A stretch of 64,000 bases of DNA from an uncultured Clostridia bacterium (GTDB lineage Bacteria; Bacillota; Clostridia; TANB77; CAG-508). The stretch spans positions 3,886 to 67,885 of the forward strand of contig CAKPNI010000001.1 of NCBI GenBank assembly GCA_934168355.1, read 5' to 3'. The notes beneath the pieces were generated by a model. That model saw only the letters and a list, made by a program, of their open reading frames with translations, made no database searches and was not told the DNA's origin. Below, one piece after another: positions 22,801-43,085 of this stretch. Numbering within the stretch: position 1 is the stretch's first letter; every line of letters starts with the position of its first letter. Both the position numbers and the translations under genes were made by a program.

Positions 22801-22840
22801 ATATATTAAGTTACAATATATTGTGATAGTAGGGGATGAA

Positions 22841-23866
22841 ATGAAATTAGAAAAAAATATTATTATAACCGATAATTCAGTAGATGATATGAATGAGTTT
22901 AAAAATGGAATAAGAGAAACATCCAATATTGAATTTAAGACTTACGCAATGAATGCCAACAAAGGGAGAGGCAATAAGTTAAAGAATTTTATAAGATATT
23001 TAAAATATTTTTATTTTCCTTTTATTATTTTTTTGAATAGAAGAAAAGTGGAAAGAATAATTGCTTGGCAACAATTTTATGGTTTAATATATGCTTTTTA
23101 TTGTAAAATATTTAACGTAAAAAAAAGAAATTATTTATATATAAATGTTTTTATTTATCGAGAGAAGAAGGGAATTATAGGAAAAATTTATTATAAATTT
23201 ATGAAATACATAGTTACTAGCGAATATATAGATAAAATGTCAACAACTTCAAAGAACGAATGTGAATTGTATAGCAAAATATTTGATGTAAATAAAGAAA
23301 AATTTGTATTTACGCCTTTTGGAGTTAATAGTATAGAGGAAGCGGTTAAAGATATTGAAGAGGATAAAGATAAATTTATTTTATCATTAGGAAGATCGAA
23401 TAGGGATTTTGATTTTTTAATTGAAACTTTAAAAGATACTGAGTATAATGTAAAAATAATATGTGACGAATTTAGAACTAATATAAAATATGATAATGTT
23501 GAAATTATTAATAATGTGTATGGCAAAAAATCTTGGGAATATATAAAAAGATGTTTTTGCATGGTAATACCAATAAAAAATCCAGAGATTTCAGCAGGAC
23601 AAACAGTATTGTTAAATTCGATGCAATTAAGGAAACCAATAATAATAACTGAATCCAAAGGACTTACTGATGACTACATAGAAAGTGGCAAAACGGGTAT
23701 TATAATAAAGAAAAAGAGAGAGGAACTATTAAATGCTCTTAACAGTTTGTTTGAAAATCAAGAATTTTATGATGAAATTGCGGATAATGAATACGAACTT
23801 TATAAAGAGAAGTTTTCAATAAAGGTTTTAGGAAGGTTAGTAGGAGATATTATAAAGGAAAGGTGA
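22841..23866 (+). CDS. Glycosyltransferase (GT-B, GT1/GT4-like C-terminal domain)
   Basis: C-terminal GT-B signature around KPIIITESKGLTDDYIESGKTG. Start at ATG 22841 after AGGGGATGA SD. Confidence 0.55.
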   Translation: MKLEKNIIITDNSVDDMNEFKNGIRETSNIEFKTYAMNANKGRGNKLKNFIRYLKYFYFPFIIFLNRRKVERIIAWQQFYGLIYAFYCKIFNVKKRNYLYINVFIYREKKGIIGKIYYKFMKYIVTSEYIDKMSTTSKNECELYSKIFDVNKEKFVFTPFGVNSIEEAVKDIEEDKDKFILSLGRSNRDFDFLIETLKDTEYNVKIICDEFRTNIKYDNVEIINNVYGKKSWEYIKRCFCMVIPIKNPEISAGQTVLLNSMQLRKPIIITESKGLTDDYIESGKTGIIIKKKREELLNALNSLFENQEFYDEIADNEYELYKEKFSIKVLGRLVGDIIKER

Positions 23867-23869
23867 AAT

Positions 23870-26161: not shown

Positions 26162-26184
26162 GACAATTTTGAGAGGAAAAAAAT

Positions 26185-27300
26185 ATGAAAGTACTACATT
26201 TACTTGCAACAGGAGGAACGGGCGGAATTGAAGTTTTATGTAAGGATATATTCCTAAGGTCGAATTTTGACAACAGAATATGTTGCTTATTTGATGAAGG
26301 GGAAATTTTTAAAAGCTTAAGTGAAGAAAATGAAAAAATATTTTCGCTAAAAAAATACAATAAAAACATAAATAAAATAGTTAAGTACCTAGTTAAGTAT
26401 TGTATTAATGAAAAAATAGAAATTATAACAGTACATCATGGTGGCTTAAGTTGTAATCTAATTTATATAATGCTAAAAAAAAGATTACCAAATCTGAAAT
26501 ATGTAAGGTATTTACATGCTTGTTTTGATCAATATGCTTTTGGTAATGACAAGGGAATATTTAATAGAATATTAATAAGGACGATGATGCAAAAAGCATT
26601 TAATTGTTCTGATTTATTAATATTTATTTCGAGAGCAGTAGAAAAAAGTTTTGATATAAAATTTAATATAAAAAATAAAAGTAGATCTATTATATATAAT
26701 GGGATAGATGAAAAATTCTTTAGTCAAAAAAAATCAATAAGAAATGAAAAAAAAGAAATAAATATAACCTTTGTTGGGAGATTATCTTATGTTAAGGGTG
26801 TAGATTTATTGATTAGAGCTTTTTCAGATGTAAGAAAAGAAAATAAAAATGCGTATTTGGTAATTGTTGGAGATGGAGAAGAAAAAGAAAAACTTATAAA
26901 TTTGTCTACTGAATTAAATTTAAGTAATAGAATTAGATTTGTTGGACGACAATCTAATGTAATTGAATGGCTTGATTTAGCGGATATTTTTGTGTACCCT
27001 TCCATTTGGGAAGAAGGTTTTGGAATATCAGTTGTGGAGGCGATGGCTAGAGGATGTATACCTATTACATTTAAAAGAGGAGGGTTACCAGAAATTATAG
27101 ATAACAATCAAAATGGTATTTTGGTAGATGATGTAAACGTTAAAAATTTGGTCAAAGCTATAAAACAAATTATAATGTTGGATGAATATAAAAAAAATAA
27201 AATAATAGATTATGCACAATCTACAGCGAAAAGGTTTACAATAGAAAATACAATAAGGAGTTTGGAATCTGAATATGTAAAATTACTAAATGAAAAATAG
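26185..27300 (+). CDS. Glycosyltransferase family 4
   Basis: PSIWEEGFGISVVEAMARGCIPI EX7E motif. Confidence 0.8.
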   Translation: MKVLHLLATGGTGGIEVLCKDIFLRSNFDNRICCLFDEGEIFKSLSEENEKIFSLKKYNKNINKIVKYLVKYCINEKIEIITVHHGGLSCNLIYIMLKKRLPNLKYVRYLHACFDQYAFGNDKGIFNRILIRTMMQKAFNCSDLLIFISRAVEKSFDIKFNIKNKSRSIIYNGIDEKFFSQKKSIRNEKKEINITFVGRLSYVKGVDLLIRAFSDVRKENKNAYLVIVGDGEEKEKLINLSTELNLSNRIRFVGRQSNVIEWLDLADIFVYPSIWEEGFGISVVEAMARGCIPITFKRGGLPEIIDNNQNGILVDDVNVKNLVKAIKQIIMLDEYKKNKIIDYAQSTAKRFTIENTIRSLESEYVKLLNEK

Positions 27301-27413
27301 TACTTATCGGAAATATTTTTTTAGAAAATTTCAGCAAGTACTATATAGAAAAACATGCAGGTTCAAAGTATTTATTATTGTGTTTTTTATGAATGGATTA
27401 GGAAGGAATTTTT

Positions 27414-28370
27414 ATGAAAAAAAATATATGTATATTAATAGTTACATTTAATAGAAAAAAAAATTTAGAAAAATTATTAGATAGCTTAATTTGTCTAAAG
27501 GAACAAATTTCTGGAATATTTATTTTTGATAATAACAGCACAGATGGCACAGCTGACATATTGAAGGAAATGAATATTATAGATTATATAGTAAAAGATG
27601 AAGTTATAATGAAAAAAAATAATAGTATAGATTATTATTATTATAAAAATAACCAGAATGAAGGAGGCGCAAAGGGATTTCATGAAGGGTTAAGAATGAT
27701 AAATTCTATGAAAGAATTTGAGTATGTGTGGGTTATGGATGATGATGTTTTACCAGAACCTGATTGCTTAGAAAATTTAATGAAATATCAAAGTGAAAAT
27801 GCTATGATTACTATACCAAATAGAACAGATGAAAATTTTAACGATAAAGTTTGTATAAAAATAGATAGAAAAAATCCTTTTAAAATTTTTATGCATAAAA
27901 AAAAGATTCTTTATAATAATGAAATAAATGACAAAGATTATGTAGATGTGGTGGATATGCCGTTTGAAGGACCATTAATAAATTGCAAATTGATTGATAA
28001 AATAGGACTGCCAGATGAAACATATTTTATTCAATTTGATGATACAGACTACGCAACGAGAGCGGTTAAATTCACTAAAATAAAATTTATAAAGAATGCA
28101 ACTTTACATAAACAAATTATTCCTACAAATGATAAAAAAAGACAAATGAATTGGAAAGACTATTATGCATATAGGAATGATATTTTGTATTGTAGAAAAT
28201 ACGGCGAAAATATTTTTGTAAAATATTTAACTCCTATTTTATTATATATTAATTTAATGGGAAAAGCTATTATAAAGAGAAAAGGAAAAAACATTAAAGT
28301 TATAAGTAGAGCTTTCTATGATGGATACACTGAGAAAAAAGGAAAAACTGTAGAACCAGGAGAATTTTAA
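27414..28370 (+). CDS. Glycosyltransferase family 2
   Basis: ICILIVTFNR...FDNNSTDGT and DDD motif (WVMDDDV). Confidence 0.8.
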   Translation: MKKNICILIVTFNRKKNLEKLLDSLICLKEQISGIFIFDNNSTDGTADILKEMNIIDYIVKDEVIMKKNNSIDYYYYKNNQNEGGAKGFHEGLRMINSMKEFEYVWVMDDDVLPEPDCLENLMKYQSENAMITIPNRTDENFNDKVCIKIDRKNPFKIFMHKKKILYNNEINDKDYVDVVDMPFEGPLINCKLIDKIGLPDETYFIQFDDTDYATRAVKFTKIKFIKNATLHKQIIPTNDKKRQMNWKDYYAYRNDILYCRKYGENIFVKYLTPILLYINLMGKAIIKRKGKNIKVISRAFYDGYTEKKGKTVEPGEF

Positions 28371-28371
28371 T

Positions 28372-29769
28372 ATGTTGTTAGAAAGAAAAAGAAAAAAAGA
28401 TATAAACAAGATGACACTAGTGACAATTTTTGTATTAATATTAATAAGTTTCTTTTCAGAAAAAATGGAAAGTATAAAAGTAATATTGTATGTTGCTTGC
28501 GCACTGGTTGGTTTTTTTTCCACTAGATATACATTTGTAATAATTATGTTGGCATACACAAATGCCTTCTCACTGTTTAATGGGTTAGAAATGCAAGGAG
28601 GTTTAACGGATTTTGGACTAATTGCTGGATTGGTATGTTGTGGAATGGAAACGATAAGATATATAAAAGAAAAAAAATATAAAATTTCTAAAAAGTGTAT
28701 TGGCATTGTTGCATATGTTTTAAGTATTTTATTGCTATTATCTTTTAGTATTATGGTAGCGAAGCTAAGATATGATCAACCTATTATTAGGGGGATATAT
28801 TCATTTAGATATATATTGGTTATTATGTATGTTTTTCCTTTTATTAGATTCTTAAAGAAGGATAGACAAGAAAAAATAGTAATTATGGAATACCTGTCTA
28901 GAATCATTACAATTTCAATAATAATAATTATTATACAAGAATTAATAAAGGATAAAGTTGAAATATTAAAATTGTTAAGAACAGCAAGATTAGGTAAAGA
29001 TAGAATTTTGCTACATGCGGCTTCACCATTATATATAATGGTTTTTGCATATAACCTTTATAAAATATTAAAGGATAAAAAGGATGTATTATATGGAATA
29101 TTACCAATAATATTAATCTTAATAGCAGTTTTTATAATTTCACAGACCAGAATTTTTATGGCATGTATTTTGTCAGTTGCAATTTTAGAAGTATTGGTAT
29201 TTAGCAAAATAAAGATAGTAAATAAAATAGCTTTGGCTATAATAGGGTTGGGTATAATTGGAATTGCCTTTGAAACTAATATAGTGAATCAAATGTTAGG
29301 AAATTTATTTGAGGATGTGAATAAAGATGGAGATTCATATATAAGAAATGAAGGAAGAAGATATTATATGGCTCTTATTGACGATGAATTTTTTTTTATG
29401 GGAGGAGGAATTACTAACGAAAAATATTTAGAGTCTCCAATAAATGCTGCAAGTGAATATAATTATTATTTGGTGGATATAGGAATTTATGGCTTTTTCT
29501 TTGAGTATGGAAGTCTAGGTATAATTGCCATAGGAATTTTAACAATAGATATTTTTAGAAAAAGTTTCTATATTAAAGATAAATCAATATCAAATTTACT
29601 AAAAATGTTTTGTGCGATGATTATTACAATGTTATATACGGTTTCACCTCTTTCCTCAAGTGTATGGATTTTGTATGTTGTAATGATTGCTTTTATAGAA
29701 TCAGAAATAAATTTAAATTGTTTTGAGAAAATAGACAGGAAAGAAATAAATAGGAAACATATGTATTAA
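28372..29769 (+). CDS. wzy: Wzy-type polysaccharide polymerase / O-antigen ligase-like membrane protein
   Basis: 465 aa, about 10-12 TM helices with large periplasmic loop. Position in Wzx/Wzy-type locus. Confidence 0.6.
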   Translation: MLLERKRKKDINKMTLVTIFVLILISFFSEKMESIKVILYVACALVGFFSTRYTFVIIMLAYTNAFSLFNGLEMQGGLTDFGLIAGLVCCGMETIRYIKEKKYKISKKCIGIVAYVLSILLLLSFSIMVAKLRYDQPIIRGIYSFRYILVIMYVFPFIRFLKKDRQEKIVIMEYLSRIITISIIIIIIQELIKDKVEILKLLRTARLGKDRILLHAASPLYIMVFAYNLYKILKDKKDVLYGILPIILILIAVFIISQTRIFMACILSVAILEVLVFSKIKIVNKIALAIIGLGIIGIAFETNIVNQMLGNLFEDVNKDGDSYIRNEGRRYYMALIDDEFFFMGGGITNEKYLESPINAASEYNYYLVDIGIYGFFFEYGSLGIIAIGILTIDIFRKSFYIKDKSISNLLKMFCAMIITMLYTVSPLSSSVWILYVVMIAFIESEINLNCFEKIDRKEINRKHMY

Positions 29770-29799
29770 TATTTATAGTAAAGTAAAGGAGAGATGGAT

Positions 29800-30903
29800 A
29801 TGAAATATGATTATTTAATTGTTGGTTCAGGCCTATTTGGTTCAGTATTTGCATATGAAGCAAATAAAAAAGGAAAAAAATGTTTAGTAATAGATAAACG
29901 TTCACACATAGCTGGAAATATATACACAGAAAGTATAGAAGACATAAATGTTCATAAATATGGAGCACATATATTTCACACAAATAGTAAAGAAATTTGG
30001 AATTATATAAACCAATTTGCTGAGTTTAATAGATACACGAATTCTCCAATCGCAAGATATAAGGAAGAATTATACAATCTGCCATTTAATATGAATACAT
30101 TTAGCAAATTATGGAATGTGTATACACCTAAAGAGGCAATGAATAGAATTGAAAAAGAGAAAGAAGAAGCAGGAATAATAGAGCCTAAAAATTTAGAAGA
30201 ACAAGCTATAAGTTTAGTAGGAAGAACAATTTATGAAAAACTAGTAAAAGGATATACAGAAAAGCAATGGGGACAAAAGGCAACTGAATTACCAAGCTTT
30301 ATAATAAAAAGATTACCTGTACGATTTACATATGACAATAATTATTTTAATGATAAATATCAAGGAATTCCTATTGGAGGATATACTCAAATAGTTAATA
30401 CAATGTTAAAAGGAATAGATGTAAGATTAAATTGCGATTTTTTTGAGAATAGAGAAGAATTAGAAAAGATAGCTAATAAAATAATATTTACAGGACCAAT
30501 AGACAAATTTTACGATTATAAGTTTGGAGAACTTGAATACAGAAGCTTAAGGTTTGAAACAAAAGTTTTAAATGAATCAAATTATCAAGGAAATGCTGTG
30601 GTAAATTATACAGAATATGAAGTTCCATATACAAGAATAATAGAACATAAACATTTTGAATATGGAACACAATCTAAAACTGTAATTACAAAAGAATATC
30701 CAGATAAGTGGACAAAAGAAAAAGAACCATATTATCCAGTAAATAATGAAAAAAATAATTCTTTATACGGAAAATATAAAGAGTATTCAAATAAAGATAA
30801 AAATATTGTATTTGGCGGAAGACTAGGACAATATAAATATTACGATATGGATAAAGTTATAGAGCAAGCACTTGAATGTGTAAAAGGAGAATTAAATGGC
30901 TAA
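29800..30903 (+). CDS. glf: UDP-galactopyranose mutase
   Basis: N-terminal FAD motif YDYLIVGSGLFGSVFA and conserved Glf core. Confidence 0.9.
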   Translation: MKYDYLIVGSGLFGSVFAYEANKKGKKCLVIDKRSHIAGNIYTESIEDINVHKYGAHIFHTNSKEIWNYINQFAEFNRYTNSPIARYKEELYNLPFNMNTFSKLWNVYTPKEAMNRIEKEKEEAGIIEPKNLEEQAISLVGRTIYEKLVKGYTEKQWGQKATELPSFIIKRLPVRFTYDNNYFNDKYQGIPIGGYTQIVNTMLKGIDVRLNCDFFENREELEKIANKIIFTGPIDKFYDYKFGELEYRSLRFETKVLNESNYQGNAVVNYTEYEVPYTRIIEHKHFEYGTQSKTVITKEYPDKWTKEKEPYYPVNNEKNNSLYGKYKEYSNKDKNIVFGGRLGQYKYYDMDKVIEQALECVKGELNG

Positions 30904-32353
30904 GAAAAGCATAGCAAAAAACTATATATATAATTTAGCGTATCAGATATTAATAATATTATTACCAATAATAACAACTCCATATTTATCAAGAGTATTA
31001 GGTGCTGAAAATATAGGAATATATAGTTATACACTATCAATTGTAACGTATTTTATACTATTTGGATCTTTAGGCATATCAATGTATGCACAAAGAGAAA
31101 TAGCATATGTTCAAGAGAATAAGCAAAAAAGAAGTAAAATATTTTTGGAAGTGTTAATATTAAGGTTTATTACATTATCGATTTCTATGATAATATATTA
31201 TTTTGTATATGTAAATGGAACGCAATATCAGATGTATTACAGAATACTATTAATCGAAATTATAGCAACAGGTTTGGATATATCGTGGTATTTTCAAGGA
31301 ATGGAAGATTTCAGAAAAACAGTATTTAGAAATACATTGGTGAAACTTGTAAGTATCGCTTTGATTTTTTTATTAGTTAAAAAACAAGAAGATTTAGCAA
31401 AATATTTTATAATTTATGTTATATCTAATTTTATAGGAAATTTATCCTTGTGGTTATATATACCTAGATCTTTAGACAGAATAAGAGTTAAAGAACTACA
31501 GCCATTAAAACATTTTAAGGCAACAATTGGTTTATTTATACCACAAATAGCCATACAGATATATACATTACTAGATAAAGTTATGATTGGAGTAATAATT
31601 AATGATAAATCTGAAGTGGGCTATTATGACCAAGCACAAAAAATTATAAAAATATTATTAACAATTGTAACATCCTTAGGAACGGTAATGATACCAAGAA
31701 TGGCAAACACATTTGCAAATGGGGATATGAAACAAATAAAAGAATATATGAAGAAATCTTTTAGATTTGTATATATTATTTCAATACCAATGATATTTGG
31801 AATTATTGCAGTTTCAGATAAATTTGTACCTGTATTTTTTGGGGATGGATATGAAAAAGTTTCGATCATTATGAAAGTTATAAGCCCAATATTATTAATA
31901 ATAGGGTTAAGCAATGTAATAGGTTCGCAATATTTATTACCAACCAAAAGACAAAAAGAATTTACAATATCAGTTACGTGTGGTGCAATTACTAACTTTA
32001 TAGTCAATTCTATAGTTATAAGGAAGCTGGGAGCAGTTGGGGCTTCTGTAGGTACCGTAATAGCGGAAAGCATTGTTACAGCAATACAGATTTATTTTGT
32101 AAGAAAAGACATAAATTTAAAAGAATGTATAAATATATCAAAAAAATATATTATAGTTGGATTGACTATGTTTATAGTAGTTACATTTATAGGAATATTT
32201 ATAAAAAATAATTTTGTTTCTATAGTTGTACAAGGATTGGTTGGTACATGTATATATATAATTGGTTTATACATTACAAAAGATGAATTTTTTATAAATT
32301 TATTACAAAATGTAAAAAATAAAATAAAAAATAAAAATGTTACAGAAATTTAA
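30896..32353 (+). CDS. wzx: Oligosaccharide flippase (Wzx, MOP superfamily)
   Basis: 485 aa, 12-14 TM helices, polysaccharide biosynthesis protein family. Confidence 0.8.
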   Translation: MAKKSIAKNYIYNLAYQILIILLPIITTPYLSRVLGAENIGIYSYTLSIVTYFILFGSLGISMYAQREIAYVQENKQKRSKIFLEVLILRFITLSISMIIYYFVYVNGTQYQMYYRILLIEIIATGLDISWYFQGMEDFRKTVFRNTLVKLVSIALIFLLVKKQEDLAKYFIIYVISNFIGNLSLWLYIPRSLDRIRVKELQPLKHFKATIGLFIPQIAIQIYTLLDKVMIGVIINDKSEVGYYDQAQKIIKILLTIVTSLGTVMIPRMANTFANGDMKQIKEYMKKSFRFVYIISIPMIFGIIAVSDKFVPVFFGDGYEKVSIIMKVISPILLIIGLSNVIGSQYLLPTKRQKEFTISVTCGAITNFIVNSIVIRKLGAVGASVGTVIAESIVTAIQIYFVRKDINLKECINISKKYIIVGLTMFIVVTFIGIFIKNNFVSIVVQGLVGTCIYIIGLYITKDEFFINLLQNVKNKIKNKNVTEI

Positions 32354-32438: not shown

Positions 32439-35400
32439 ATGAATAAAAAAGTCGAAAGATATGAGAAAAAGGCAAAAAAATTAATAAATACAATAAAACT
32501 GATTGGTATTTGCACTTTTGTGCTTGGGATAGTTATATCAATTTCGCAGTATATAGTAAACAATTTGGATAGCAAATTTGAAAAAAACGAAGGAAGCGAA
32601 ACAATTAAACAAGAAGAATTTAATGAATCAGGAACAGGAACGACGTATTATATTTCTAGAGATGGAACCTCGAGTGATGGAACTAATATTAATGATCCAA
32701 TGTCTTTAAGTGAAGCAAATAAAAAAAATTTTGAAGGTAATGATAGAGTGCTATTTAAGAGCGGAGATATATTTTATGGAATAATAAGTTTTTCTGTGAA
32801 TAAAAGTGACAACTCATTATTTTATATTGGAAGCTATGGTGATGGTGAAAAACCTATTATAAGTGGGGCTAATATATTAAAAAATAGAGATTGTTGGGAA
32901 TATAAAGATGGATTATACCAAATAGACTTATCGAAGAATGGAAATTTTTATGGTATAGGAAATTTTGGGAATATAACATATAATATTGGTTTTTTAGAGA
33001 GTGAAAATGGAACGATATATGGCGCTAGAAAAAAAAGCAAAGACTTATTAATAGATGAGTATGACTTTTATTGTGAAGATAGTAAATTGTATATAAAATG
33101 TAATCAGAATCCAACAGATAAATTGGGACAAATTAAATTGGCTAGTAGAATAGATTTGGTTAGATTATCATCTAATACTTTAATAGAAAATATAGATGTT
33201 CAATGTACGGGTGCACACGGAATTGTAAAAAAGAATAGTGAGGTGATTTCTAATGTCATTGTTAGAAACTGTATAATACAAAATATAGGCGGAAGTGTAC
33301 AAATAGCAAGTTCTTTTACAAGATATGGAAATGGATTAGAGTTTTGGGATAATGCAGAAAATACTCTTGTAGAAAAATGTATTTTTAAAAATATATATGA
33401 TGCGGGATATACTATGCAGGGAAATGGAAATAATAGTGGATTTGAAAATAATGTGTGTAGAGATAATATCTTTATAAACTGTACATATACATACGAAACA
33501 TTCTGTAGAGATCAACAGTATACTTACAAGGGGATTTTTTTAAGGTTTCAAAAATTCTTAAATAATCTTTCGATAAACCAAGGAAGAGGATGGGGATATG
33601 ACGTAAGAGTTGATAAAGAAAAATCGGGTGAAATGGTGTTATGGGCAATTCCTGTTAACGATACGGACATAGAAATAAGTAATAATATATTTTATAACTC
33701 AAGAAGGATAAAATACAAGACTACATATACAAAAATCACAGATAGTGAGTATAAAAAATGTATATTATCCGATAATAATAAGTTATATTTGAGCAATGAT
33801 ACAAAATTACTAAATGATGACGGAGATTATTACAATAGAGAATGCTTTAACAAATTGAAATTTGAAGTAAATTCGGATTGGAATATTTTGAATGAAGCAG
33901 AAATGGATAATATTGAAAACAAAAATGTTTTTAAATCAAATAACTATGAATTTATAAAAAAATACTATGAACTATTCGAAGATGCAGAATATAATAAAAA
34001 GATAGAATTAGGAGATACAACCGCAAATATATATACAAAAAATGAACAAAAAATAGCATTAGTATATAACAATTCTAAAAAAAGTTACATACCTTACACA
34101 AATTACAAAGCAACTGACATATATGGCAACGAAATAGAAAACAATGGAACATTAGAAATATCTCAGGAGCCAATATTAATATATAATTTAAAAGAGGACG
34201 AATTATATAATAATATTTACAAAAATATAGAAGAAAAAAGTGACTATTTTATTGAAAAATATAAAACAAAATTGGATTCTAAAAATTTAGAGGAAATTAG
34301 AAAAAAGACAGAACAAATAAAAGAAGAATCAAAGAAAATACTAGAACTAAAAGAACCTGTAACAAATCAATATACTATTAATTTAATAGAAAAAATTTAT
34401 CAAAATGGCGAAAGTATAACAAATGTATATAAAGAAAACAATAATTTGATAAATAATGAAGAAGTTGTACAAATGCTTTCTGATATATTAGATATTAGTG
34501 TTCAAGCTGAGAAGTTATTAAGTACATCTAAAGGCGAAGTAATTAATTATAATAAAAAAACAGATATTGAAAAAAATATAAAAGAATTTGAGAAGATAGG
34601 ACAATTTTATAATGAAACCGAAGCAAGTTCAATTTATAAATTAGAAAATGAAGGAAAGGAATATTATAAAAAAATTACACCAGATGTTTCTAATGAAAAT
34701 GATTTTAATAATATAAAAGCATATTATGAAACATTATGGGCATATCAATTAATGAAACAATATGATATCGAATACATCAAAAACAACCCAGTAACAATCG
34801 ACTACTCAGAAACAAACCCAACAAACCAAAACGTAACAGCAACACTAAGAACAAATGCACAAATAACAATAAACAACAACTCAAACAGCAAAGCCTACAC
34901 CTTCACACAAAACGGAACCTTCACCTTCGACTACACAATAAAAGGACAAACATTCCAACAAACAGCAACAGTAAACAACATAGACAAAACAGCACCAACA
35001 ATAGAAGGAGTAGAAAACAATAGACTATACTTATCAGAAGTAACACCAAAGGCAAGTGATACAAATCTAAAAGAAGTACTATTATACAAAGACAACAATC
35101 AAGTGCAAAACTATCAACAAAATACCAAAATCACAGAAGATGGGCATTACAAACTAGTTGCCAAAGATTCAGCAGAAAATCAAACATCAGTAGAATTTGA
35201 CATCTCAAGAAATCCTGCAATAATAGATTACTCGGAAGTAAATCTAACAAATCAAGATGTAGTAGCAACAGTAAATTCAAATTTTGATGTAAACGTAAAA
35301 AATAATTCAAATCAAAAATCGTATACATTTAAGGAAAATGGAGAATTTACATTTGAATTAAACATAAAAGGTGCGGAATTACAGCTAACAGCAAAGGTTG

Positions 35401-36032
35401 ACAATATAGATAAAACACCTCCAACTATTACAGATGTGGAAGATGGAAAACAATATATAGAAAAAGTAACACCTAAAATATCTGATGATAACCTAAATGA
35501 GGTTAAACTATATTTCGATTCAGAAGAAGTACAAGGATATACACTAAATTCAGAAATAACAGGAGAAGGATTCTACAAATTAGTTGCGAAAGACTTAGCT
35601 GGAAACGAAACATCAGTTGAATTTACAATAATTGAAAATCCAGATGAGAAATATCAAATAAAAGATGGAAATATATTAAATATTAAAAACAATACTAATC
35701 AAGATACCTTCAGAAAGAAATTAAAAATGTCTGGAGAATATAGTATTTACAGAAATAATACTTTAATTTCAGATAATGATAAAATTGCAACAGGAGATAA
35801 ATTAAGAAAATCTACTGGTGAGGAGTATACATTAATTGTTAGTGGTGACATTAATAATGATGGTGATGTAAATATTAAAGATATAGTTATGCTTAGAAAG
35901 TATTTACTTGAAAGAAATAACTTAGATGAAAATAGCTTACTTGCTGCCGATTGTAATTTAGATGGTAAAGATATTAGTATTAAGGATTTAATTAGAATGA
36001 GGCTTATAGCCTTAGAAAGAGATGTAAACTAG
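32439..36032 (+). CDS. Large surface protein: N-terminal signal anchor, right-handed beta-helix (pectate-lyase-like) domain, two tandem about 140-aa Ig-like repeats, C-terminal type-I dockerin
   Basis: PbH1-like repeats (NCIIQNIGGS). Tandem repeats at about 34785-35210 and 35211-35640. Dockerin duplicated Ca-binding segments DINNDGDVNIKD and DCNLDGKDISIKD. Confidence 0.75.
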   Translation: MNKKVERYEKKAKKLINTIKLIGICTFVLGIVISISQYIVNNLDSKFEKNEGSETIKQEEFNESGTGTTYYISRDGTSSDGTNINDPMSLSEANKKNFEGNDRVLFKSGDIFYGIISFSVNKSDNSLFYIGSYGDGEKPIISGANILKNRDCWEYKDGLYQIDLSKNGNFYGIGNFGNITYNIGFLESENGTIYGARKKSKDLLIDEYDFYCEDSKLYIKCNQNPTDKLGQIKLASRIDLVRLSSNTLIENIDVQCTGAHGIVKKNSEVISNVIVRNCIIQNIGGSVQIASSFTRYGNGLEFWDNAENTLVEKCIFKNIYDAGYTMQGNGNNSGFENNVCRDNIFINCTYTYETFCRDQQYTYKGIFLRFQKFLNNLSINQGRGWGYDVRVDKEKSGEMVLWAIPVNDTDIEISNNIFYNSRRIKYKTTYTKITDSEYKKCILSDNNKLYLSNDTKLLNDDGDYYNRECFNKLKFEVNSDWNILNEAEMDNIENKNVFKSNNYEFIKKYYELFEDAEYNKKIELGDTTANIYTKNEQKIALVYNNSKKSYIPYTNYKATDIYGNEIENNGTLEISQEPILIYNLKEDELYNNIYKNIEEKSDYFIEKYKTKLDSKNLEEIRKKTEQIKEESKKILELKEPVTNQYTINLIEKIYQNGESITNVYKENNNLINNEEVVQMLSDILDISVQAEKLLSTSKGEVINYNKKTDIEKNIKEFEKIGQFYNETEASSIYKLENEGKEYYKKITPDVSNENDFNNIKAYYETLWAYQLMKQYDIEYIKNNPVTIDYSETNPTNQNVTATLRTNAQITINNNSNSKAYTFTQNGTFTFDYTIKGQTFQQTATVNNIDKTAPTIEGVENNRLYLSEVTPKASDTNLKEVLLYKDNNQVQNYQQNTKITEDGHYKLVAKDSAENQTSVEFDISRNPAIIDYSEVNLTNQDVVATVNSNFDVNVKNNSNQKSYTFKENGEFTFELNIKGAELQLTAKVDNIDKTPPTITDVEDGKQYIEKVTPKISDDNLNEVKLYFDSEEVQGYTLNSEITGEGFYKLVAKDLAGNETSVEFTIIENPDEKYQIKDGNILNIKNNTNQDTFRKKLKMSGEYSIYRNNTLISDNDKIATGDKLRKSTGEEYTLIVSGDINNDGDVNIKDIVMLRKYLLERNNLDENSLLAADCNLDGKDISIKDLIRMRLIALERDVN

Positions 36033-36349: not shown

Positions 36350-37555
36350 ATGATAAGTAGAGATGAATACTTAAATGTATTAAAGAGATTTAAAGATAAA
36401 GCATTGATAAAAGTTATAACAGGAATAAGAAGATGTGGGAAATCTACTATACTTGAAATGTTTCAAGATTATTTAAAAGAAAATGGAGTAGAAGAAGGTC
36501 AAATAATAAGTATCAATTTAGAAGATTTAGAGTATAACTTTATAACAGATTATATGACTTTATATAAATATATCAATGATAAATTAAAAGAAAAGAAAAA
36601 ATATTATATATTTATAGATGAAGTTCAAAAAATAAATGAATTCCAAAAAGCAGTGGACAGCTTATATATAAAGAAAAATGTTGATTTGTATATAACAGGC
36701 TCAAATGCGAATCTATTATCAAGTGAACTTGCAACACTTTTATCTGGAAGATATATAGAAGTTAAAATGTTACCATTATCTTTTAAAGAATATAAAGAAG
36801 CCTATAAAGATTTAAATAATGAAGATCTATATCAAAAATATATTTCATTAGGTTCTCTTCCATATATTACATCACTAGATACTGAAGATGATGTGAGTAT
36901 GTATTTAAGTAGTGTATATAATGATATAATAATAAAAGATGTTATGACAAGAAAGAAAATACAAGATGAAACTATGCTCAGAAATGTTGCCAATTTTGCT
37001 ATGGATAATATAGGAAGTCTTGTATCTACAAATAATATAGCAAATACTATGATAAGTGATGGTAAAGATATAAATGTAAGAACAGTTGAAAGATATCTAG
37101 AAGGATTCACAGAAAGTTTCTTTTTATATAAAGCTTCAAGATATGATATAAAAGGAAAAGAATATTTAAAGACTCAAGGAAAATATTATGTTTCTGATTT
37201 AGGCTTTAGGTACTTTATGCTAGGAAGAAAAATAGGAGATTTTGGTCATATATTAGAAAATGTGGTTTATTTTGAACTTTTAAGAAGAGGTTATGATGTA
37301 TATATAGGAAAAATAGATGAATATGAAGTGGACTTTGTAGCAATAAATAATGAAGGAAGATTATATGTCCAAGTTACTGATACTTTAAAAGGAATTGATG
37401 AGAATGACACAAAAATATTAGATAGAGAATTACGATCTTTAAGGAAAATAAATGATAATTATGAAAAAATAATATTAACTTCAGATAAAATACCTGTTTC
37501 TAATGAAGATGGAATAAAAATAAAAAATGTTTTAGAATGGTTGCTTGATAAATAA
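36350..37555 (+). CDS. AAA-family ATPase with DUF4143
   Basis: Walker A GIRRCGKST and DUF4143-type C-terminal region. Confidence 0.7.
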   Translation: MISRDEYLNVLKRFKDKALIKVITGIRRCGKSTILEMFQDYLKENGVEEGQIISINLEDLEYNFITDYMTLYKYINDKLKEKKKYYIFIDEVQKINEFQKAVDSLYIKKNVDLYITGSNANLLSSELATLLSGRYIEVKMLPLSFKEYKEAYKDLNNEDLYQKYISLGSLPYITSLDTEDDVSMYLSSVYNDIIIKDVMTRKKIQDETMLRNVANFAMDNIGSLVSTNNIANTMISDGKDINVRTVERYLEGFTESFFLYKASRYDIKGKEYLKTQGKYYVSDLGFRYFMLGRKIGDFGHILENVVYFELLRRGYDVYIGKIDEYEVDFVAINNEGRLYVQVTDTLKGIDENDTKILDRELRSLRKINDNYEKIILTSDKIPVSNEDGIKIKNVLEWLLDK

Positions 37556-37708: not shown

Positions 37709-38488
37709 ATGAAAAAAATAGTAACAAGTTTTATTATATTAATAATAGCAATACTTATGTACCAAACAGTATATGCCGCAGAAAATAGTACAGGAGCAAG
37801 TGTAGTATTTAACTTTTCTGGAGATAGCAAAGTAACACAAGGAACCAAAACAGTAACATATACAATATCATTAGGAAACTTTGTAGGAATTCCAGAAAAT
37901 GCAATGATGGGATATGAAGCAGTTCTTGAGTATGATAGTAATGTGTTTAATTCAGCTACAATAGAAGGATTAAATGATTGGACAGCACAATACACAGAAT
38001 CAACAAAAAGATTGATAGGAGAAACAAGAACAAAAGGAGAATCAAATAAGGAAATTGCAAAAATAACATTAACTTTAAAAGATGATGCTCCAGTAGGAAA
38101 CACAACAGTAAAATTAAATAATGTTTTACTAACTGCAAATGGCAACCAAGAATTCTCGTACACAAAAGAAGCAACATTGCAAATAGAAGCAAAAGCTGAA
38201 GAACCAAAAAATGATGACAAAAATAATACTACAGAAAACACAAACACAACCCAAACTGCTACACAAAATGAAAGTAAAAATCAAACAAATAGCAATATAC
38301 AAAATCCAGTACCAAACAATACTTCAAATGAATATAAAAGCATTAAAAAAAATGGTACAAGCAATAATTCAAAAGCAGCATCAGTTTTACCTAAGACAGG
38401 AACAGGAAGAATTGCACTAGCTGTATTTATGATTTTAATTATAGGAATTGGTTGTTTAATAAGATACAAATCAATTCAAACAAAATAA
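37709..38488 (+). CDS. Cell-wall-anchored (LPKTG) protein with cohesin-like N-terminal domain and Asn/Thr-rich linker
   Basis: Signal peptide (cleavage after VYA). Cohesin-like beta-sandwich sequence features. C-terminal LPKTGTG plus TM plus basic tail. Confidence 0.6.
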   Translation: MKKIVTSFIILIIAILMYQTVYAAENSTGASVVFNFSGDSKVTQGTKTVTYTISLGNFVGIPENAMMGYEAVLEYDSNVFNSATIEGLNDWTAQYTESTKRLIGETRTKGESNKEIAKITLTLKDDAPVGNTTVKLNNVLLTANGNQEFSYTKEATLQIEAKAEEPKNDDKNNTTENTNTTQTATQNESKNQTNSNIQNPVPNNTSNEYKSIKKNGTSNNSKAASVLPKTGTGRIALAVFMILIIGIGCLIRYKSIQTK

Positions 38489-38512: not shown

Positions 38513-38540
38513 AAAAACTATTGCCTAAAAAGAGCAAAAA
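38513..38540 (+). promoter_or_regulatory. Putative sigmaA promoter (TTGCCT, 16 nt, TATAAT)
   Basis: Hexamers upstream of the 38581 ORF. Confidence 0.4.
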
Positions 38541-38580
38541 TGATATAATGAATGCATAATAAAAAAGGGAGGATTTAATT

Positions 38581-39099
38581 ATGAAAAAACTATTAACAAT
38601 TTCAATTTTAGCAATTGCTTTAGTATTAATGGCCGTAACAGGAGTTAATGCAACAACAAACGACAATTTAGCTGAAACACTATACAATATAGGAGCTAAA
38701 TATGGTATGACAAAAGCTGATAAAGTAAAAATTGAAAGATACTTAGCTGATTATCCAGTTACAGAATCAGAAGCTAATGCAATAGTTGCAAAAGCTAATG
38801 AAGCTGCAAAAGTAATGGATAATGCTGGAGTAACAGACTTCAATAAATTATCAAAAGAACAAAAAGCTGAAATAAAATCAATTGCTAATCAAGCTGCAAG
38901 TATTGTTGGTGTTACTTTAACATACAAATCTGGTTCTGTTGAAATATACAAAAACGGAAAATTAATTGAAACAGTTACTAATAACAATGGAAAACTTGCT
39001 TACACAGGAAATAATAATATGGTTTTAGTTGTTTCTTCAATAGCAGTTATAGCCCTAGCTTCAGTAGCAGTTGCTAGAAAGAAATTAGCTAATGCATAA
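38581..39099 (+). CDS. Secreted protein with non-canonical LAYTG sorting signal
   Basis: Signal peptide. C-terminal LAYTG, then hydrophobic segment, then RKK. Overlaps start of the adjacent sortase gene. Confidence 0.6.
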   Translation: MKKLLTISILAIALVLMAVTGVNATTNDNLAETLYNIGAKYGMTKADKVKIERYLADYPVTESEANAIVAKANEAAKVMDNAGVTDFNKLSKEQKAEIKSIANQAASIVGVTLTYKSGSVEIYKNGKLIETVTNNNGKLAYTGNNNMVLVVSSIAVIALASVAVARKKLANA

Positions 39100-39712
39100 T
39101 TTAGCAAGAAATGCAATAAAAGCAACTATTATAGAATTAATAGTTGCTTTATTTATTACTGCACTTTTGATAGGTATAGGATATATTCTATTTGGGGCTA
39201 AAATAGAAGAAAATATGTCATTAATAAGCAAAGTATCAATTGGAGTCAGTAACGGAAATGAAGTTGTTGAAACAGTGGTAGATGATAATGATAAATTAAA
39301 AAATTATCCAGAATATGGAACAAAATACGCAAATATAAAAATACCAAAAATAGATGTAGATCTTCCTGTATATTACGGTGATAGTTTAGATGTTCTAAAA
39401 AAAGGAGTAGGACATTCAAGTGGAAGCTATTTTCCAGGAGAAGGTGGCTCAATAATATATATGGGGCATAACTCAAAAAAAATGTTTAGAAGATTTTCAG
39501 AATTACAAAAAGGGAATGAGATAGAGGTTACCACTAATTATGGAGATTTTAAATACAAAATATATGATATGCAATTAATAAAAGAAACTGATGTGGATAA
39601 ACTTCCAATTCAAAAAGACAAAGAAATTTTAATGGTATATACGTGTTATCCATTTAACAATATAGGATATGCAACACAAAGATATGTAGTATATGCGGAA
39701 TTAGAAAATTAG
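39092..39712 (+). CDS. Sortase (transpeptidase)
   Basis: N-terminal TM, catalytic His (YMGHNS), TLxTC-like MVYTCYP, conserved Arg (QRYVVYAEL). Confidence 0.75.
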   Translation: MHNLARNAIKATIIELIVALFITALLIGIGYILFGAKIEENMSLISKVSIGVSNGNEVVETVVDDNDKLKNYPEYGTKYANIKIPKIDVDLPVYYGDSLDVLKKGVGHSSGSYFPGEGGSIIYMGHNSKKMFRRFSELQKGNEIEVTTNYGDFKYKIYDMQLIKETDVDKLPIQKDKEILMVYTCYPFNNIGYATQRYVVYAELEN

Positions 39713-39724: not shown

Positions 39725-40579
39725 GTGGCAAAGAAAATAATACAATATATAGTGGCTACAATATTAGCATTGGCTATACTTGGATTAGTTGTAATAAATA
39801 TACTTTCAACTTCTATCTTAAATAAGGGGTATATAATATCTAAATTACAAACTCAACAGTATTATGATAAAATATATGAAGAAACTGAATCAAATTTTGA
39901 AAATTATATACATCAATCAGGTCTTGATGAAGATGTATTAAAAGACATAGTATCAAAAGAAAAAATAGAAAAAGATACCAAAATAATTTTAAACAATATA
40001 TATAATGGTATGGATGAAAAGATAGATACAAAAGAAATTAAAGAAAAATTAAATGAAAATATAAATAATTCTTTGAATGGAAAAATTTCTAGTTCAGAAC
40101 AAAAATCTATAGACACTTTTGTTGATACAATTTGTAAAGAATATGAAACAACAATTTTACATACCAATTATGAAAAAAAGATACATGAAACAATAGAAAA
40201 AATAAATAAATATATCGATTTATCCAAAAAAGCAATGATGATAATTATAGGTGTTTCAGTTATATTATTAATTTTATTAACAATAAGAAGAATTTATAGA
40301 ATTATTTCAAAAATTGGTGTGGCATTTATAATTGATGGTTTGATTTTGGTATTAGCAAAAAAATATATTGGTTCCAACATAAAAGTAGATACAATAAAGT
40401 TGCTAAATAACGGGATATCTGATGTATTGCAAAGTATTTTAAATGAAATGATAGGAAAAGTATTAAAAACTGGTAGTATATTATTGGCTTTGGGAATTAC
40501 AATGATAATAATTTATGGAATAATAAAAAGCATTCGTAAAGCAAAAAGAGAAAAAGACCAATATACACCAGAAAATTAA
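39725..40579 (+). CDS. Hypothetical membrane protein
   Basis: TM helices at both ends. GTG start after AGGAGGA. Confidence 0.45.
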   Translation: MAKKIIQYIVATILALAILGLVVINILSTSILNKGYIISKLQTQQYYDKIYEETESNFENYIHQSGLDEDVLKDIVSKEKIEKDTKIILNNIYNGMDEKIDTKEIKEKLNENINNSLNGKISSSEQKSIDTFVDTICKEYETTILHTNYEKKIHETIEKINKYIDLSKKAMMIIIGVSVILLILLTIRRIYRIISKIGVAFIIDGLILVLAKKYIGSNIKVDTIKLLNNGISDVLQSILNEMIGKVLKTGSILLALGITMIIIYGIIKSIRKAKREKDQYTPEN

Positions 40580-40595: not shown

Positions 40596-41309
40596 ATGGA
40601 AGAATTAGATTTAAAAGAATTATTAAGCTTATTTTGGAGCAAAATTTTTCAAATAATAGTAATTGTACTTATAGTAACAGGAGTAGGAGTAATTTATACA
40701 TATGGCTTTACCACTCCTAAATATAGTTCATCAACAACACTTGTACTTACAGGTTCAGAGCCATCAACAAGCTCAGATGCCACAAATTCAATAACAACAA
40801 CAGATATAACTTTAAACTCAAAATTAGTATCAACATATAGTGAACTTGTAAAAAGTAGTAAAGTTTTAAGACAGGTTATATCAAATTTAGGAATAGATGT
40901 AAATGAAGATGAATTAAGAAAAAATGTAACAGTAAAATCTGTTGAAGATACAGAAGTAATAAAAATTACTGTAACAAATGCAAATGCTGCATATTCAGCA
41001 AAAATAGCAAATGAAATAGCCAAAATATTTTCAGGAATGGTTTCAGATATCTATAATATAAATAATATATATATAGTAGATGAGGCAGAAGTATCAAATA
41101 CGCCATCAAATATACATCATAGTAAGGACATAATGATATTTGGATTTTTAGGACTAGTAATATCTATAATGTATGTTTTAATTGCTAATATGTTAGATAC
41201 AACAGTAAAAACACCAGAAGATGTTGAAAAAGGAGTAGGTTTACCAGTACTTGTAACTATTCCATATATAGAAAACTTTGGAAACGAAAAAGGAGGTAAA
41301 AGAAAATGA
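40596..41309 (+). CDS. Capsular polysaccharide chain-length determinant (Wzz/CpsC-like)
   Basis: Two TM helices flanking an extracellular domain. Directly upstream of the tyrosine kinase. Confidence 0.75.
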   Translation: MEELDLKELLSLFWSKIFQIIVIVLIVTGVGVIYTYGFTTPKYSSSTTLVLTGSEPSTSSDATNSITTTDITLNSKLVSTYSELVKSSKVLRQVISNLGIDVNEDELRKNVTVKSVEDTEVIKITVTNANAAYSAKIANEIAKIFSGMVSDIYNINNIYIVDEAEVSNTPSNIHHSKDIMIFGFLGLVISIMYVLIANMLDTTVKTPEDVEKGVGLPVLVTIPYIENFGNEKGGKRK

Positions 41310-42286
41310 AAAAAGAAGTAATAGCACATAAAAATCCTAAATCTCCTATTTCAGAAGTTTTTAGAACACTAAGAACAAATATACAATTTATGGATGTAAA
41401 CAAAAAAATGAAAGTATTGACAGTTACATCAACTTTCCCAGGAGAGGGAAAAAGTTGGGTTGCATCAAACTTAGCAGTTACATTTGCCCAAGCGGGAAAA
41501 AAGGTTGTTTTAATAGATGCAGACATGAGAAAAGGAAGACAGTATGCAATATTTGGACTTTCTCCAAAACCAGGACTTTCAAACTTTTTATCACAGGTTG
41601 AAATGGATAATAATGGTAGATTGTCAGAAAATGTAGCAGACTATATTCAACCAACAGAAGTTGAAAATTTATTTGTCATTACAGCAGGAAATGTACCACC
41701 AAATCCATCAGAGCTTTTAGTATCAACTCAAATGATAGGTTTATTGGATGCATTAAGAAATTCTTGTGATATGATAATAATAGATGGAACACCAAGCGAG
41801 CTAGTTACAGATGCTGTTATCTTATCGAGAATATCTGATTCTACAGTAATAGTAACTGCACACAAGATTACAAAAAAAGATGCATTAGAAAGAGTAGTAA
41901 AAAATATACAAAATGTTGGTGGAAAAATTGCTGGAGTTATAATAAACAAAGTTCCGATATCAGCAAAACGCTATGGTGAAAAGTATTACTATTATGGAGA
42001 AGATAGAATTTTATCTGGAAAATCGAAAAAAGTTGCTAATATATCAAAAGCACAATCTACAAGAGAAAATTTTTCATTTGGAAATAATCAAGTAGATAAA
42101 AATCCATATCAAGATGATATGGATGAAATGGAAAGTAAAGACTTTTTAAGAGAAGATTCAGAGCCTTTATTTATTCGTAAAAACGAAGAAATAGTAAATC
42201 AAAATGAAGAAGTATCATTAGACAAAACAAATGATATATTAAAACAAATTAACGAATATTTAGATAACGAAAAAAAGAAACTATAA
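41306..42286 (+). CDS. Polysaccharide biosynthesis tyrosine autokinase (CpsD/CapB-like)
   Basis: Walker A TSTFPGEGKSW, C-terminal tyrosine cluster YGEKYYYYGED. Confidence 0.85.
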   Translation: MKKEVIAHKNPKSPISEVFRTLRTNIQFMDVNKKMKVLTVTSTFPGEGKSWVASNLAVTFAQAGKKVVLIDADMRKGRQYAIFGLSPKPGLSNFLSQVEMDNNGRLSENVADYIQPTEVENLFVITAGNVPPNPSELLVSTQMIGLLDALRNSCDMIIIDGTPSELVTDAVILSRISDSTVIVTAHKITKKDALERVVKNIQNVGGKIAGVIINKVPISAKRYGEKYYYYGEDRILSGKSKKVANISKAQSTRENFSFGNNQVDKNPYQDDMDEMESKDFLREDSEPLFIRKNEEIVNQNEEVSLDKTNDILKQINEYLDNEKKKL

Positions 42287-42305: not shown

Positions 42306-43085
42306 ATGAAAATGATTGATTTTCATTCACATGTTCTTCCAAATGTTGATGATGGTTCAAAAAGCGTTGAGGAAACGTTTAAATTACTAGAAGAGGCAAA
42401 AGAGGCAGGATTCGATGGAGTAATATCAACCTCTCATTATATGGAAGAATATTATGAAGTAAATGTAGCTGAAAGAAAAGTATGGATAAATGCACTATCA
42501 GAAAATTTATATCAGAAAAATATAGATTTAAAGCTATATTTAGGTAACGAAATTTATATATCCAAAAATATCATTGATTTTTTAGAAACTGGGAAAGCAA
42601 CAAGTATTAATAATTCCAATTACGTACTTTTTGAATTCCCTATGAATTCTAAACCAATGGATATGTATGATATTATATATGATATGTTAGAATATAAATT
42701 GGTACCAGTCTTAGCTCATCCTGAGAGATATTCGTTTGTACAAAAAGAGCCTAATTTGGTATACGACTTAATTCAAAAAGGGGTTCTTATGCAATCAAAT
42801 TATGGTAGTATCTTAGGAATGTATGGCGAAAAAGCGCAAATTATTGTTAGGAAATTATTAGAAAATAATATGGTACATTTTTTAGGTAGTGATGTACATA
42901 GGGCTAATTCTATTTATTCTAAAATTCAAAGTAGTTTAGGAGAGATTGAAGCGATAGTGGGAGAGGAGAAACTAAAAGAGATTAGTTCGGTCAATCCAAA
43001 ATTGGTTGTGGATAACAAGAGAATTGATATTGATGAGCCAAGGGAAATTAAGTTATCTTTAAAGGAAAAGATGAAGCTCTTATAA
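42306..43085 (+). CDS. Tyrosine-protein phosphatase CpsB/CapC (PHP family)
   Basis: MIDFHSHVLPNVDDGS metal-binding motif. Confidence 0.85.
   Translation: MKMIDFHSHVLPNVDDGSKSVEETFKLLEEAKEAGFDGVISTSHYMEEYYEVNVAERKVWINALSENLYQKNIDLKLYLGNEIYISKNIIDFLETGKATSINNSNYVLFEFPMNSKPMDMYDIIYDMLEYKLVPVLAHPERYSFVQKEPNLVYDLIQKGVLMQSNYGSILGMYGEKAQIIVRKLLENNMVHFLGSDVHRANSIYSKIQSSLGEIEAIVGEEKLKEISSVNPKLVVDNKRIDIDEPREIKLSLKEKMKLL

Follow-up and report, generated by a model that had tools for sequence, protein, structure and literature searches.

A class-D-like sortase and a small LAYTG protein form a probable dedicated cassette beside polysaccharide genes of uncultured gut Clostridia

Introduction

Which kind of sortase reads a sorting signal that lacks the usual proline, and does it serve that signal alone? 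The question is raised by a stretch of DNA from an uncultured Clostridia bacterium (assembly GCA_934168355.1, contig CAKPNI010000001.1, positions 3,886 to 67,885 of the forward strand). This stretch, 64 kb of the source genome and called the window below, is AT-rich (G+C 27.7%) and carries, at positions 38581–39712, a gene for a small secreted protein ending in a LAYTG signal and, overlapping it, a gene for a sortase. About 90% of the known sorting signals have Pro at position P3, and non-proline signals have been attributed to the class E sortases of Actinobacteria (PMC5148588). A preliminary description of the locus, made from the letters alone, linked the sortase to class E, proposed a dedicated enzyme–substrate pair and considered a second anchoring pathway next to that of a neighbouring LPKTG protein.

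We compared the locus with those of its relatives. For the species survey of the small protein one genome per species was used, resulting in 78 species-level assemblies, all from uncultured Clostridia and nearly all metagenome-assembled genomes (MAGs). Where recorded, the sources were mostly human or other animal gut (e.g., Candidatus Merdicola and 'Clostridium sp.' UMGS bins). The loci of the relatives comprise ~12 kb each, and sortase counts given below cover these loci and the window only. The two genes probably constitute a dedicated sortase–substrate cassette, which is part of a three-gene unit located at the head of cpsC-cpsD-cpsB in most of the genomes. The order of genes on the + strand is cohesin-like LPKTG protein, 172-amino acid (aa) protein, sortase, 284-aa membrane protein, cpsC/wzz, cpsD, and cpsB; the preliminary description mentioned neither the conserved membrane-protein gene nor the setting in a polysaccharide locus.

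Results

A small secreted protein with a conserved LAYTG signal

The first gene of the unit (38581–39099, + strand) encodes the 172-aa protein, which has the layout of a sortase substrate, with a signal peptide (aa 1–24), a domain of ~118 aa without an assigned family (aa 25–142) and a C-terminal sorting signal. The N-terminus, MKKLLTISILAIALVLMAVTGVNA|TT (MKKLL...VTGVNA|TT), is signal-peptide-like and lies within a hydropathy segment at aa 1–27, and the C-terminus reads ...NNNGK-LAYTG-NNN-MVLVVSSIAVIALASVAVA-RKKLANA. The LAYTG motif (aa 139–143, 38995–39009, + strand), for which cleavage between T142 and G143 is predicted from the general sortase mechanism, is followed by a hydrophobic membrane-retention segment (aa 147–165; hydropathy segment 144–167) and the basic tail RKKLANA (aa 166–172), together at 39019–39096 on the + strand. 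The three-part sorting signal noted earlier is therefore complete, with a pentapeptide ending in T-G (Ala replacing Pro at P3), the hydrophobic stretch and the positively charged RKK tail, and the protein also has a signal peptide. A search for other LAxTG C-termini, suggested in the preliminary description and run within the 64-kb window, found none besides the substrate. Upstream of the gene, a promoter-like site, TTGCCT-17 nt-TATAAT with a TG extension (38521–38549, + strand), matches the consensus in 10 of 12 positions, a consensus match only, and a ribosome-binding site GGGAGG (38567–38572, + strand) is read 8 nt before the ATG.

The substrate family carries no annotation; it is large, with 937 homologues collected at 90% clustering and 336 clusters at 50% identity. 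LAYTG was found in 78 of the 80 homologues from the 78 species-level genomes, at overall identities of 41–99%. As the motif is kept despite synonymous codon turnover (Leu CTT/TTA/CTA/TTG, Ala GCT/GCA/GCG, Tyr TAC/TAT), selection acts on the peptide. Within the LAYTG clade the signal is fixed as GKLAYTGN. The family-wide consensus, based on position frequencies in 126 representatives clustered at 50% identity, is L-x-[Y/Q]-T-G-[N/S]: P4 is Leu in 78%, P3 is Ala (33%), Val (30%), Lys (8%), Pro (7%) and also Thr or Ser, P2 is Tyr (55%) or Gln (25%), P1 is Thr in 100%, P1′ is Gly in 94%, and P2′ is Asn or Ser in 79%. Position P3 is non-proline in 93% of the representatives, and the forms with Pro are LPYTG and LPFTG. 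The designation of the signal as LAxTG therefore describes the replacement of Pro by Ala in this protein correctly, but is too narrow for the family, in which P3 can be A, V, K, T, S, or P. When 25 divergent members were aligned, only Met1 and the motif's Leu, Thr, and Gly proved invariant. None of the motifs LAYTG, LVQTG, LKQTG, or LVYTG was found as a sortase motif in the literature searched.

Two variants of the family were observed. In four proteins of 289–291 aa (P0001, P0002, P0024, and P0028) the anchored domain is tandem-duplicated and the signal is LVYTG, not LAYTG. A match of the 289-aa duplicated versions to LTXXQ was discounted, as no single stretch lay within the E-value limit. 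One locus (L069) contains three paralogues of the small protein, at 46–426, 1564–2070, and 5977–6531; two of them carry LPYTG and the third LAYTG.

A resemblance to a sorting signal could also arise by chance, in which case the C-terminus would be a mere membrane anchor and LAYTG would remain unprocessed. The window protein had no Pfam or NCBIfam match, and the lack of a match to Pfam Gram_pos_anchor in particular would fit this explanation. However, LAYTG stays invariant in 78 genomes while its codons change synonymously, Thr-Gly persists across the 126 divergent representatives, and all informative loci have a sortase gene next to the substrate gene (see below). Moreover, a lenient Pfam scan of the 25 divergent members gave weak Gram_pos_anchor matches in seven of them (the only other matches, to Cu_amine_oxidN1, were insignificant), and NCBI names one relative an LPXTG cell wall anchor domain-containing protein. 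We consider chance resemblance to be extremely improbable.

The anchored mature part of ~118 aa is predicted to fold into four helices plus a three-stranded sheet. This prediction comes from an AlphaFold2 model of low confidence overall (mean pLDDT 61.5) but moderate confidence in the domain (~70–80), and comparison of the model with PDB folds gave no match with E < 0.6.

Substrate and sortase as part of a three-gene unit

The second gene (39092–39712, + strand) encodes a sortase of 206 aa (Pfam Sortase, 102 bits) with an N-terminal membrane anchor at approximately aa 12–35. It overlaps the substrate gene by 8 nt (ATGCATAA), as had been noted. Its start, however, was placed inside the substrate stop codon, and this proved incorrect: the ATG (39092–39094) spans the sense codons AAT GCA, which precede the TAA at 39097–39099. 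In 77 of the 78 species-level genomes the sortase gene directly follows the substrate gene. In the lone exception, L069, a transposase-like open reading frame (ORF; 6941–7987) is found at the place expected for the sortase, close to the end of the contig. An 8-nt overlap of the sortase ATG with the end of the substrate gene was seen in 32 loci and an 11-nt overlap in ~27; most of the others have gaps of 2–18 nt. The adjacency of the sortase in 77/78 genomes, the invariance of LAYTG and the overlap in ~59 loci strongly support the dedicated pair that had been proposed, and the data support a pair that is conserved and usually translationally coupled.

The C-terminal Asn-Ala of the substrate (window 39089–39099, AAT GCA TAA) is well conserved and contains the sortase start codon; it may be conserved because its codons double as the sortase start, and not for the function of the substrate. 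In one locus (L012, 5528–6149 and 8747–9530) the sortase gene and likewise cpsB are broken into two ORFs, probably by a frameshift or an assembly error and not as true pseudogenes.

The third gene (39725–40579, + strand) encodes a four-pass membrane protein of 284 aa, in which a helical loop of ~150 aa separates one N-terminal transmembrane segment from about three C-terminal ones. In all loci that extend far enough, the sortase gene is followed by a gene for such a membrane protein of ~280 aa, the loop of which contains the conserved motifs NYY and SNFENYIxQSGLDE. No Pfam or NCBIfam family was assigned to it, even at lenient thresholds over 15 members. The same arrangement was seen on the contigs of distant substrate members with LKQTG (P0390) or LVQTG (P0395 and P0439), where the next gene encodes a sortase that is 47–51% identical to that of the window, followed by a membrane protein of 271–278 aa with 32–33% identity. 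As these LVQTG and LKQTG relatives keep the same genes, the unit that is conserved has three genes, and 'LAxTG' represents just one local form within a family of proline-poor signals.

The sortase resembles class D but not class E

The scores for Pfam Sortase (PF04203, 102.2 bits; gathering cut-off 26.6) and TIGR01076 (101.7 bits; cut-off 39.35) place the enzyme in the sortase superfamily. The residues corresponding to the catalytic triad, His126 (39467–39469), Cys185 (39644–39646), and Arg197 (39680–39682), occur in the conserved order and in the contexts MGHN, VYTCYP, and QRYVV, the Cys motif being TLxTC-like; they are invariant in 20 diverse orthologues and aligned with the catalytic residues of the structures 2ln7, 4d70, and 6ixz. 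In databases such sortases are named 'sortase A' only.

For the class of the enzyme we used the NCBIfam cut-offs, which are 165 bits or more (NF033746) and 140 bits or more (NF058671) for class D, 160 or more for class E (NF033747), 160 for class C, and 158 for class GN. The sortase scored 120.1 and 127.4 bits, respectively, with the two class D models, 89 with class C, 57.3 with class E, 54 with class GN, and 23 with class F, all below the cut-offs. This ranking was identical in all 20 orthologues tested; the best E-value with the class E model among them was 9.5e-19. In the three distant sortases linked to LVQTG or LKQTG, class D was also best (95–102 bits), ahead of class C. No class A or class B model of NCBIfam matched the sortase at E ≤ 0.01.

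In a profile search of the PDB, the top matches were C. perfringens sortase C (6ixz and 7d6p), B. anthracis SrtD, and C. perfringens SrtD, with E-values of 1e-19 to 3e-17. Class E structures followed at ~2e-6 and class A chains at 1e-5 to 1e-4, and no named class B entry was among the matches listed. The C-terminal sequence TCYPFNNIGYATQRYVV closely resembles TCYPFDYIGDAPDRYII of B. anthracis SrtD. The AlphaFold2 model of the sortase was poor (pLDDT 62.7); the Foldseek matches to it bore out the sortase fold without separating classes A, C, and D, and no named class E sortase was found in the top 50.

The class C matches raise the question whether the sortase polymerises its substrate, joining copies of the small protein via a lysine into a pilus-like fibre or a surface layer. 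The C. perfringens sortase C structures (E ~1e-19) rank level with the class D structures, and two lysines of the substrate, K40 and K138, are conserved inside the LAYTG clade. However, the sortase has neither a DP[F/W/Y] lid motif nor a C-terminal membrane anchor, its class C score is 89 bits versus the cut-off of 160, and none of the substrate lysines is conserved throughout the wider family. Each cassette has one substrate gene, and the predicted fold of the substrate, a small helical and sheet domain, does not appear to be that of an Ig-like pilin. Polymerisation of the pilin type was rejected on the grounds of the lid, the anchor and the lysine, and a polymerising role in general appears very unlikely.

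The link to class E did not hold either. Recognition of LAxTG has been assigned to this class and explained by a Tyr in the β3/β4 loop, Y229 of SrtE1, which is analogous to F92 of C. perfringens SrtD (CpSrtD) and A104 of SaSrtA (PMC5148588). CpSrtD F92 is located 17 residues before the catalytic His109 (PMC5148588, PMC4498605). CpSrtD does not cleave LAETG, and the characterised sortases of classes A, B, and D do not process signals with Ala at P3 (PMC4498605, PMC5148588). In our alignment, the column of the class E Tyr and CpSrtD F92 is occupied by Ser109 in the window sortase and by Ser in at least 90% of the orthologues; the class E signature is therefore absent. With class D scoring best and class E at 57 bits versus 160, we do not retain the assignment to class E. 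By its sequence, the enzyme is best described as a member of a distinct, class-D-like subfamily of Clostridia, neither demonstrably class D, as it remains below the cut-offs and has another signal, nor class E.

Four residues beyond Ser109, in the same loop, Tyr113-Phe114 is invariant, where CpSrtD has Ala-Met. Ser109, Tyr113, and Phe114 (aa 109–114, window 39416–39433) are conserved alike in the LAYTG, LVQTG, and LKQTG subfamilies. A further invariant motif, NYPEYG (aa 71–76, window 39302–39319), is found just before the first strand. NYPEYG, Ser109, Tyr113, and Phe114 are candidate subfamily-specific determinants.

The neighbouring cohesin-like protein and the number of sorting pathways

Directly upstream of the unit lies the gene of the neighbouring LPKTG protein named in the preliminary description (37709–38488, + strand). 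The protein is real, has 259 aa and ends in the canonical signal LPKTG; its Cohesin match is borderline (23.8 bits versus a cut-off of 24.1, E = 5.6e-5). Further upstream, a 1197-aa protein (32439–36032, + strand) contains a C-terminal type I dockerin (Dockerin_1, 35.2 bits versus a cut-off of 22.9) and is a probable partner of the cohesin-like protein. The dockerin gene co-occurs with the cohesin gene in related loci, and the pair recurs in ~17–19 loci. Cohesin and dockerin together look like a minimal surface display unrelated to cellulosomes. Between the two genes (window 36350–37555) a 401-aa protein with an N-terminal P-loop-like motif, GIRRCGKST, is encoded, which had no NCBIfam match at E ≤ 0.01. 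In L045 and L050, homologues of this protein are instead encoded between the cohesin and substrate genes, and L069 also has a homologue, which suggests a mobile or accessory gene.

The presence of a second surface protein with a sorting signal allows for another explanation, in which a single general (housekeeping) sortase tolerant at P3 anchors the LAYTG protein as well as the cohesin-like protein with LPKTG, and the gene overlap marks its most abundant or oldest client. The search for a second sortase gave none in the 64-kb window, nor in 77 of the 78 ~12-kb loci of the relatives. The genomes are small, with chromosomes of 1.55 and 1.77 Mb among the relatives, and the cohesin-LPKTG gene lies directly upstream in ~19 loci. 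P3 varies in the substrate family and includes Pro in 7% (LPYTG and LPFTG), and in L069 the LPYTG and LAYTG paralogues are found side by side. The small genomes and the tolerance of Pro at P3 in a few members therefore keep a single sortase alive as an explanation.

Three observations speak against it. The two genes remain strictly adjacent, with a start/stop overlap, down to 47% sortase identity, a pattern typical of sortases with a single target. The cohesin signals drift: the homologues in 17 related loci carry LPKTG, LPKAG, LPSTG, or LPATG, never LAYTG, and are without the P2 Tyr/Gln and the P2′ Asn/Ser of the small-protein family. Finally, L065, a rabbit-gut MAG, has a second, different sortase of at least 225 aa (5997–6674, − strand) ~5 kb from the triad of substrate, sortase and membrane-protein genes. 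This sortase contains the motifs LTLITC and AGHN, its best NCBIfam scores are 64 bits for class C and 53 bits for class E, and it is the only direct sign, within the 12-kb loci, of a cell with two sortases in the clade. The separate cohesin signals and the second sortase of L065 therefore fit with two pathways. We consider a single general sortase for both proteins rather unlikely and prefer the dedicated cassette.

The triad at the head of polysaccharide genes

Downstream, the triad is followed on the + strand by genes for a CpsC/Wzz-type polysaccharide chain-length determinant (40596–41309; TIGR01006 157 bits, below the cut-off; Pfam Wzz 62.8 bits), a CpsD-type polysaccharide tyrosine autokinase (41306–42286; TIGR01007 200.8 bits versus a cut-off of 108), which overlaps cpsC by 4 nt, and a CpsB-type phosphotyrosine phosphatase (42306–43085; PF19567 198 bits). 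The gaps from the sortase over membrane protein, cpsC and cpsD to cpsB are 12, 16, −4, and 19 nt. One promoter-like site lies upstream of the substrate gene, and from there through cpsB no convincing terminator was found on the + strand, apart from a hairpin inside the sortase coding sequence. The three-gene unit is probably co-transcribed with cpsC-cpsD-cpsB. A larger set of Wzx/Wzy-type polysaccharide biosynthesis genes lies upstream (16871–32353, + strand) and comprises an epimerase, VanZ, a priming sugar transferase, GT4 and GT2 glycosyltransferases, a radical SAM enzyme, a pyruvyl transferase, UDP-galactopyranose mutase, and a flippase.

The setting recurs among the relatives. The genes cpsC-cpsD-cpsB follow the triad in ~62 loci, and polysaccharide genes lie within 6 kb in 63 of the 78 loci; ~9 loci are in unrelated surroundings, and the remaining contigs are too short to tell. 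The link to polysaccharide genes is therefore frequent, not obligatory. The distant LKQTG and LVQTG triads also lie beside polysaccharide genes (epimerase, LytR-CpsA-Psr (LCP), VanZ, Bac_transf, GT4, and pyruvyl transferase). In the literature searched, we found no sortase cassettes in clostridial capsule or exopolysaccharide loci.

No LCP ligase gene was found in the 64-kb window despite the complete-looking capsule locus with cpsB, cpsC, and cpsD, and only one of the 78 related loci has an LCP gene within 6 kb (L030, 4847–5923). A replacement of the LCP (CpsA) ligase by the triad is unsupported as stated, as the LVQTG-type locus L081 has an LCP gene (8206–9225) right after the triad.

Discussion

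Comparison with known systems

Class D sortases with an adjacent substrate are known from B. anthracis, where SrtC/SrtD are found with BasH and BasI (LPNTA), and from C. perfringens, where SrtD is found with a neighbouring LPQTGS protein (PMC4498605). The window sortase shares with this class its best HMM score, the sequence TCYPF-x-x-IG...RY around Cys and Arg (common with B. anthracis SrtD), a single N-terminal membrane anchor, a gene clustered with the presumed substrate and a Firmicutes host. It differs in its scores of 120–127 bits, below the curated 165 and 140, and in its signal, which is LAYTGN (P3 Ala/Val/Lys, P1′ Gly) instead of LPxTA (Bacillus) or LPQTGS (C. perfringens); as mentioned, CpSrtD does not cleave LAETG. 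A third membrane-protein gene and a polysaccharide setting are not described for the class D systems, and no link to sporulation is evident here.

The class E sortases SrtE1 and SrtE2 of S. coelicolor, an actinobacterium, occur with the LAxTG chaplins (PMC5148588). Here, the likeness is the Ala instead of Pro at P3, as LAYTG of this clade conforms to LAxTG, together with the N-terminal anchoring of both enzymes. The differences are larger: 57 versus 160 bits in the HMM comparison, ~2e-6 for the class E structures versus 1e-19 for classes C and D in the PDB search, Ser109 instead of the signature Tyr (SrtE1 Y229), no long β6/β7 insertion in the alignments, and a host from the Clostridia. Furthermore, class E sortases are housekeeping enzymes with many substrates, whereas the window sortase has a single adjacent target.

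Two more distant systems are similar in their organisation. Sortases of class GN ('marine') have a target with a VWA domain and a partner of the OmpA family. Exosortase/PEP-CTERM systems are embedded in exopolysaccharide (EPS) loci that include genes for chain-length determinants and tyrosine kinases; the exosortases themselves are polytopic membrane proteins of Gram-negative bacteria and unrelated to sortases. As generally described, both systems combine one enzyme, one or few targets with C-terminal signals and a conserved accessory membrane protein, and the exosortase cassettes are, like the triad, tied to exopolysaccharide loci. The class GN model, however, gave 54 bits versus a cut-off of 158, and the target and accessory proteins of the triad have no detectable similarity to those of either system. 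The arrangement is a variant of the known type of dedicated sortase plus target; this three-gene cassette was not found in the literature searched.

A possible mechanism and its limits

If the dedicated cassette functions as proposed, the 172-aa precursor would be exported by Sec and lose its signal peptide after VNA, and the C-terminal hydrophobic segment with its RKK tail would hold it in the membrane. By analogy with the general sortase mechanism, Cys185 of the membrane-anchored sortase, together with His126 and Arg197, would attack the bond between Thr142 and Gly143 of LAYTG, and the sortase would move the ~118-aa domain to a peptidoglycan precursor, resulting in covalent attachment to the cell wall. 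The membrane protein may assist or position this reaction, and the anchored protein might act at the wall together with the polysaccharide layer.

Several points weigh against this explanation. The proposed cleavage site, nucleophile and specificity are all taken from the general sortase mechanism. The acceptance of Ala, Val, or Lys at P3 is unexplained, as the characterised sortases of classes A, B, and D refuse P3 Ala and the class E Tyr is Ser109 here. As a single sortase is present in the 64-kb window, it could be the general sortase of the cell, and the occasional Pro at P3 in the family suggests tolerance at P3 rather than specificity for Ala. The ~9 related loci outside polysaccharide loci have ScpA, PBP5, and MutS as neighbours in those examined. 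Finally, the AlphaFold2 models are of low confidence (mean pLDDT 61–63).

A more far-reaching proposal is that the triad is a polysaccharide-associated protein-sorting system of Gram-positive gut Clostridia and as such the functional counterpart of the exosortase/PEP-CTERM systems of Gram-negative EPS loci. The wall-anchored protein would then cooperate with CpsC, CpsD, and CpsB in assembling or attaching the capsule or exopolysaccharide or in controlling its length, e.g., as a wall-fixed docking or acceptor point, and the sortase subfamily would read P3 independently of proline by an evolved mechanism other than the tyrosine mechanism of class E. We regard this proposal as speculative and, taken as a whole, as doubtful.

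What the locus adds is a large uncharacterised family of gut Clostridia in which non-proline signals are paired with class-D-like sortases lacking the specificity tyrosine of class E. A functional pairing would be an independent solution to the reading of LAxTG, LVxTG, or LKxTG, and would offer naturally orthogonal pairs of sortase and tag (LAYTGN, LVQTGS, and LKQTG) for protein ligation. The triad marks a conserved surface component of abundant, uncultured Clostridia of the human and animal gut, and the tie of a sortase cassette to capsule and exopolysaccharide loci is an association that was not found in the literature searched.

Other genes of the window

The upstream polysaccharide locus contains genes for a radical SAM/SPASM enzyme and for a 763-aa protein in which a polysaccharide pyruvyl transferase is fused to 4Fe-4S and FrhB-like (F420 hydrogenase beta) domains; window coordinates 21622–22800 and 23870–26161 cover the enzyme and the fusion. 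The fusion or parts of it recur beside the triad in the distant loci L081, L083, and L084. Upstream of the polysaccharide locus, at 7058–13634, genes for RhuM-family, DUF2779, and WYL-domain proteins and an AAA ATPase are found together, and this cluster may be a defence or mobile island.

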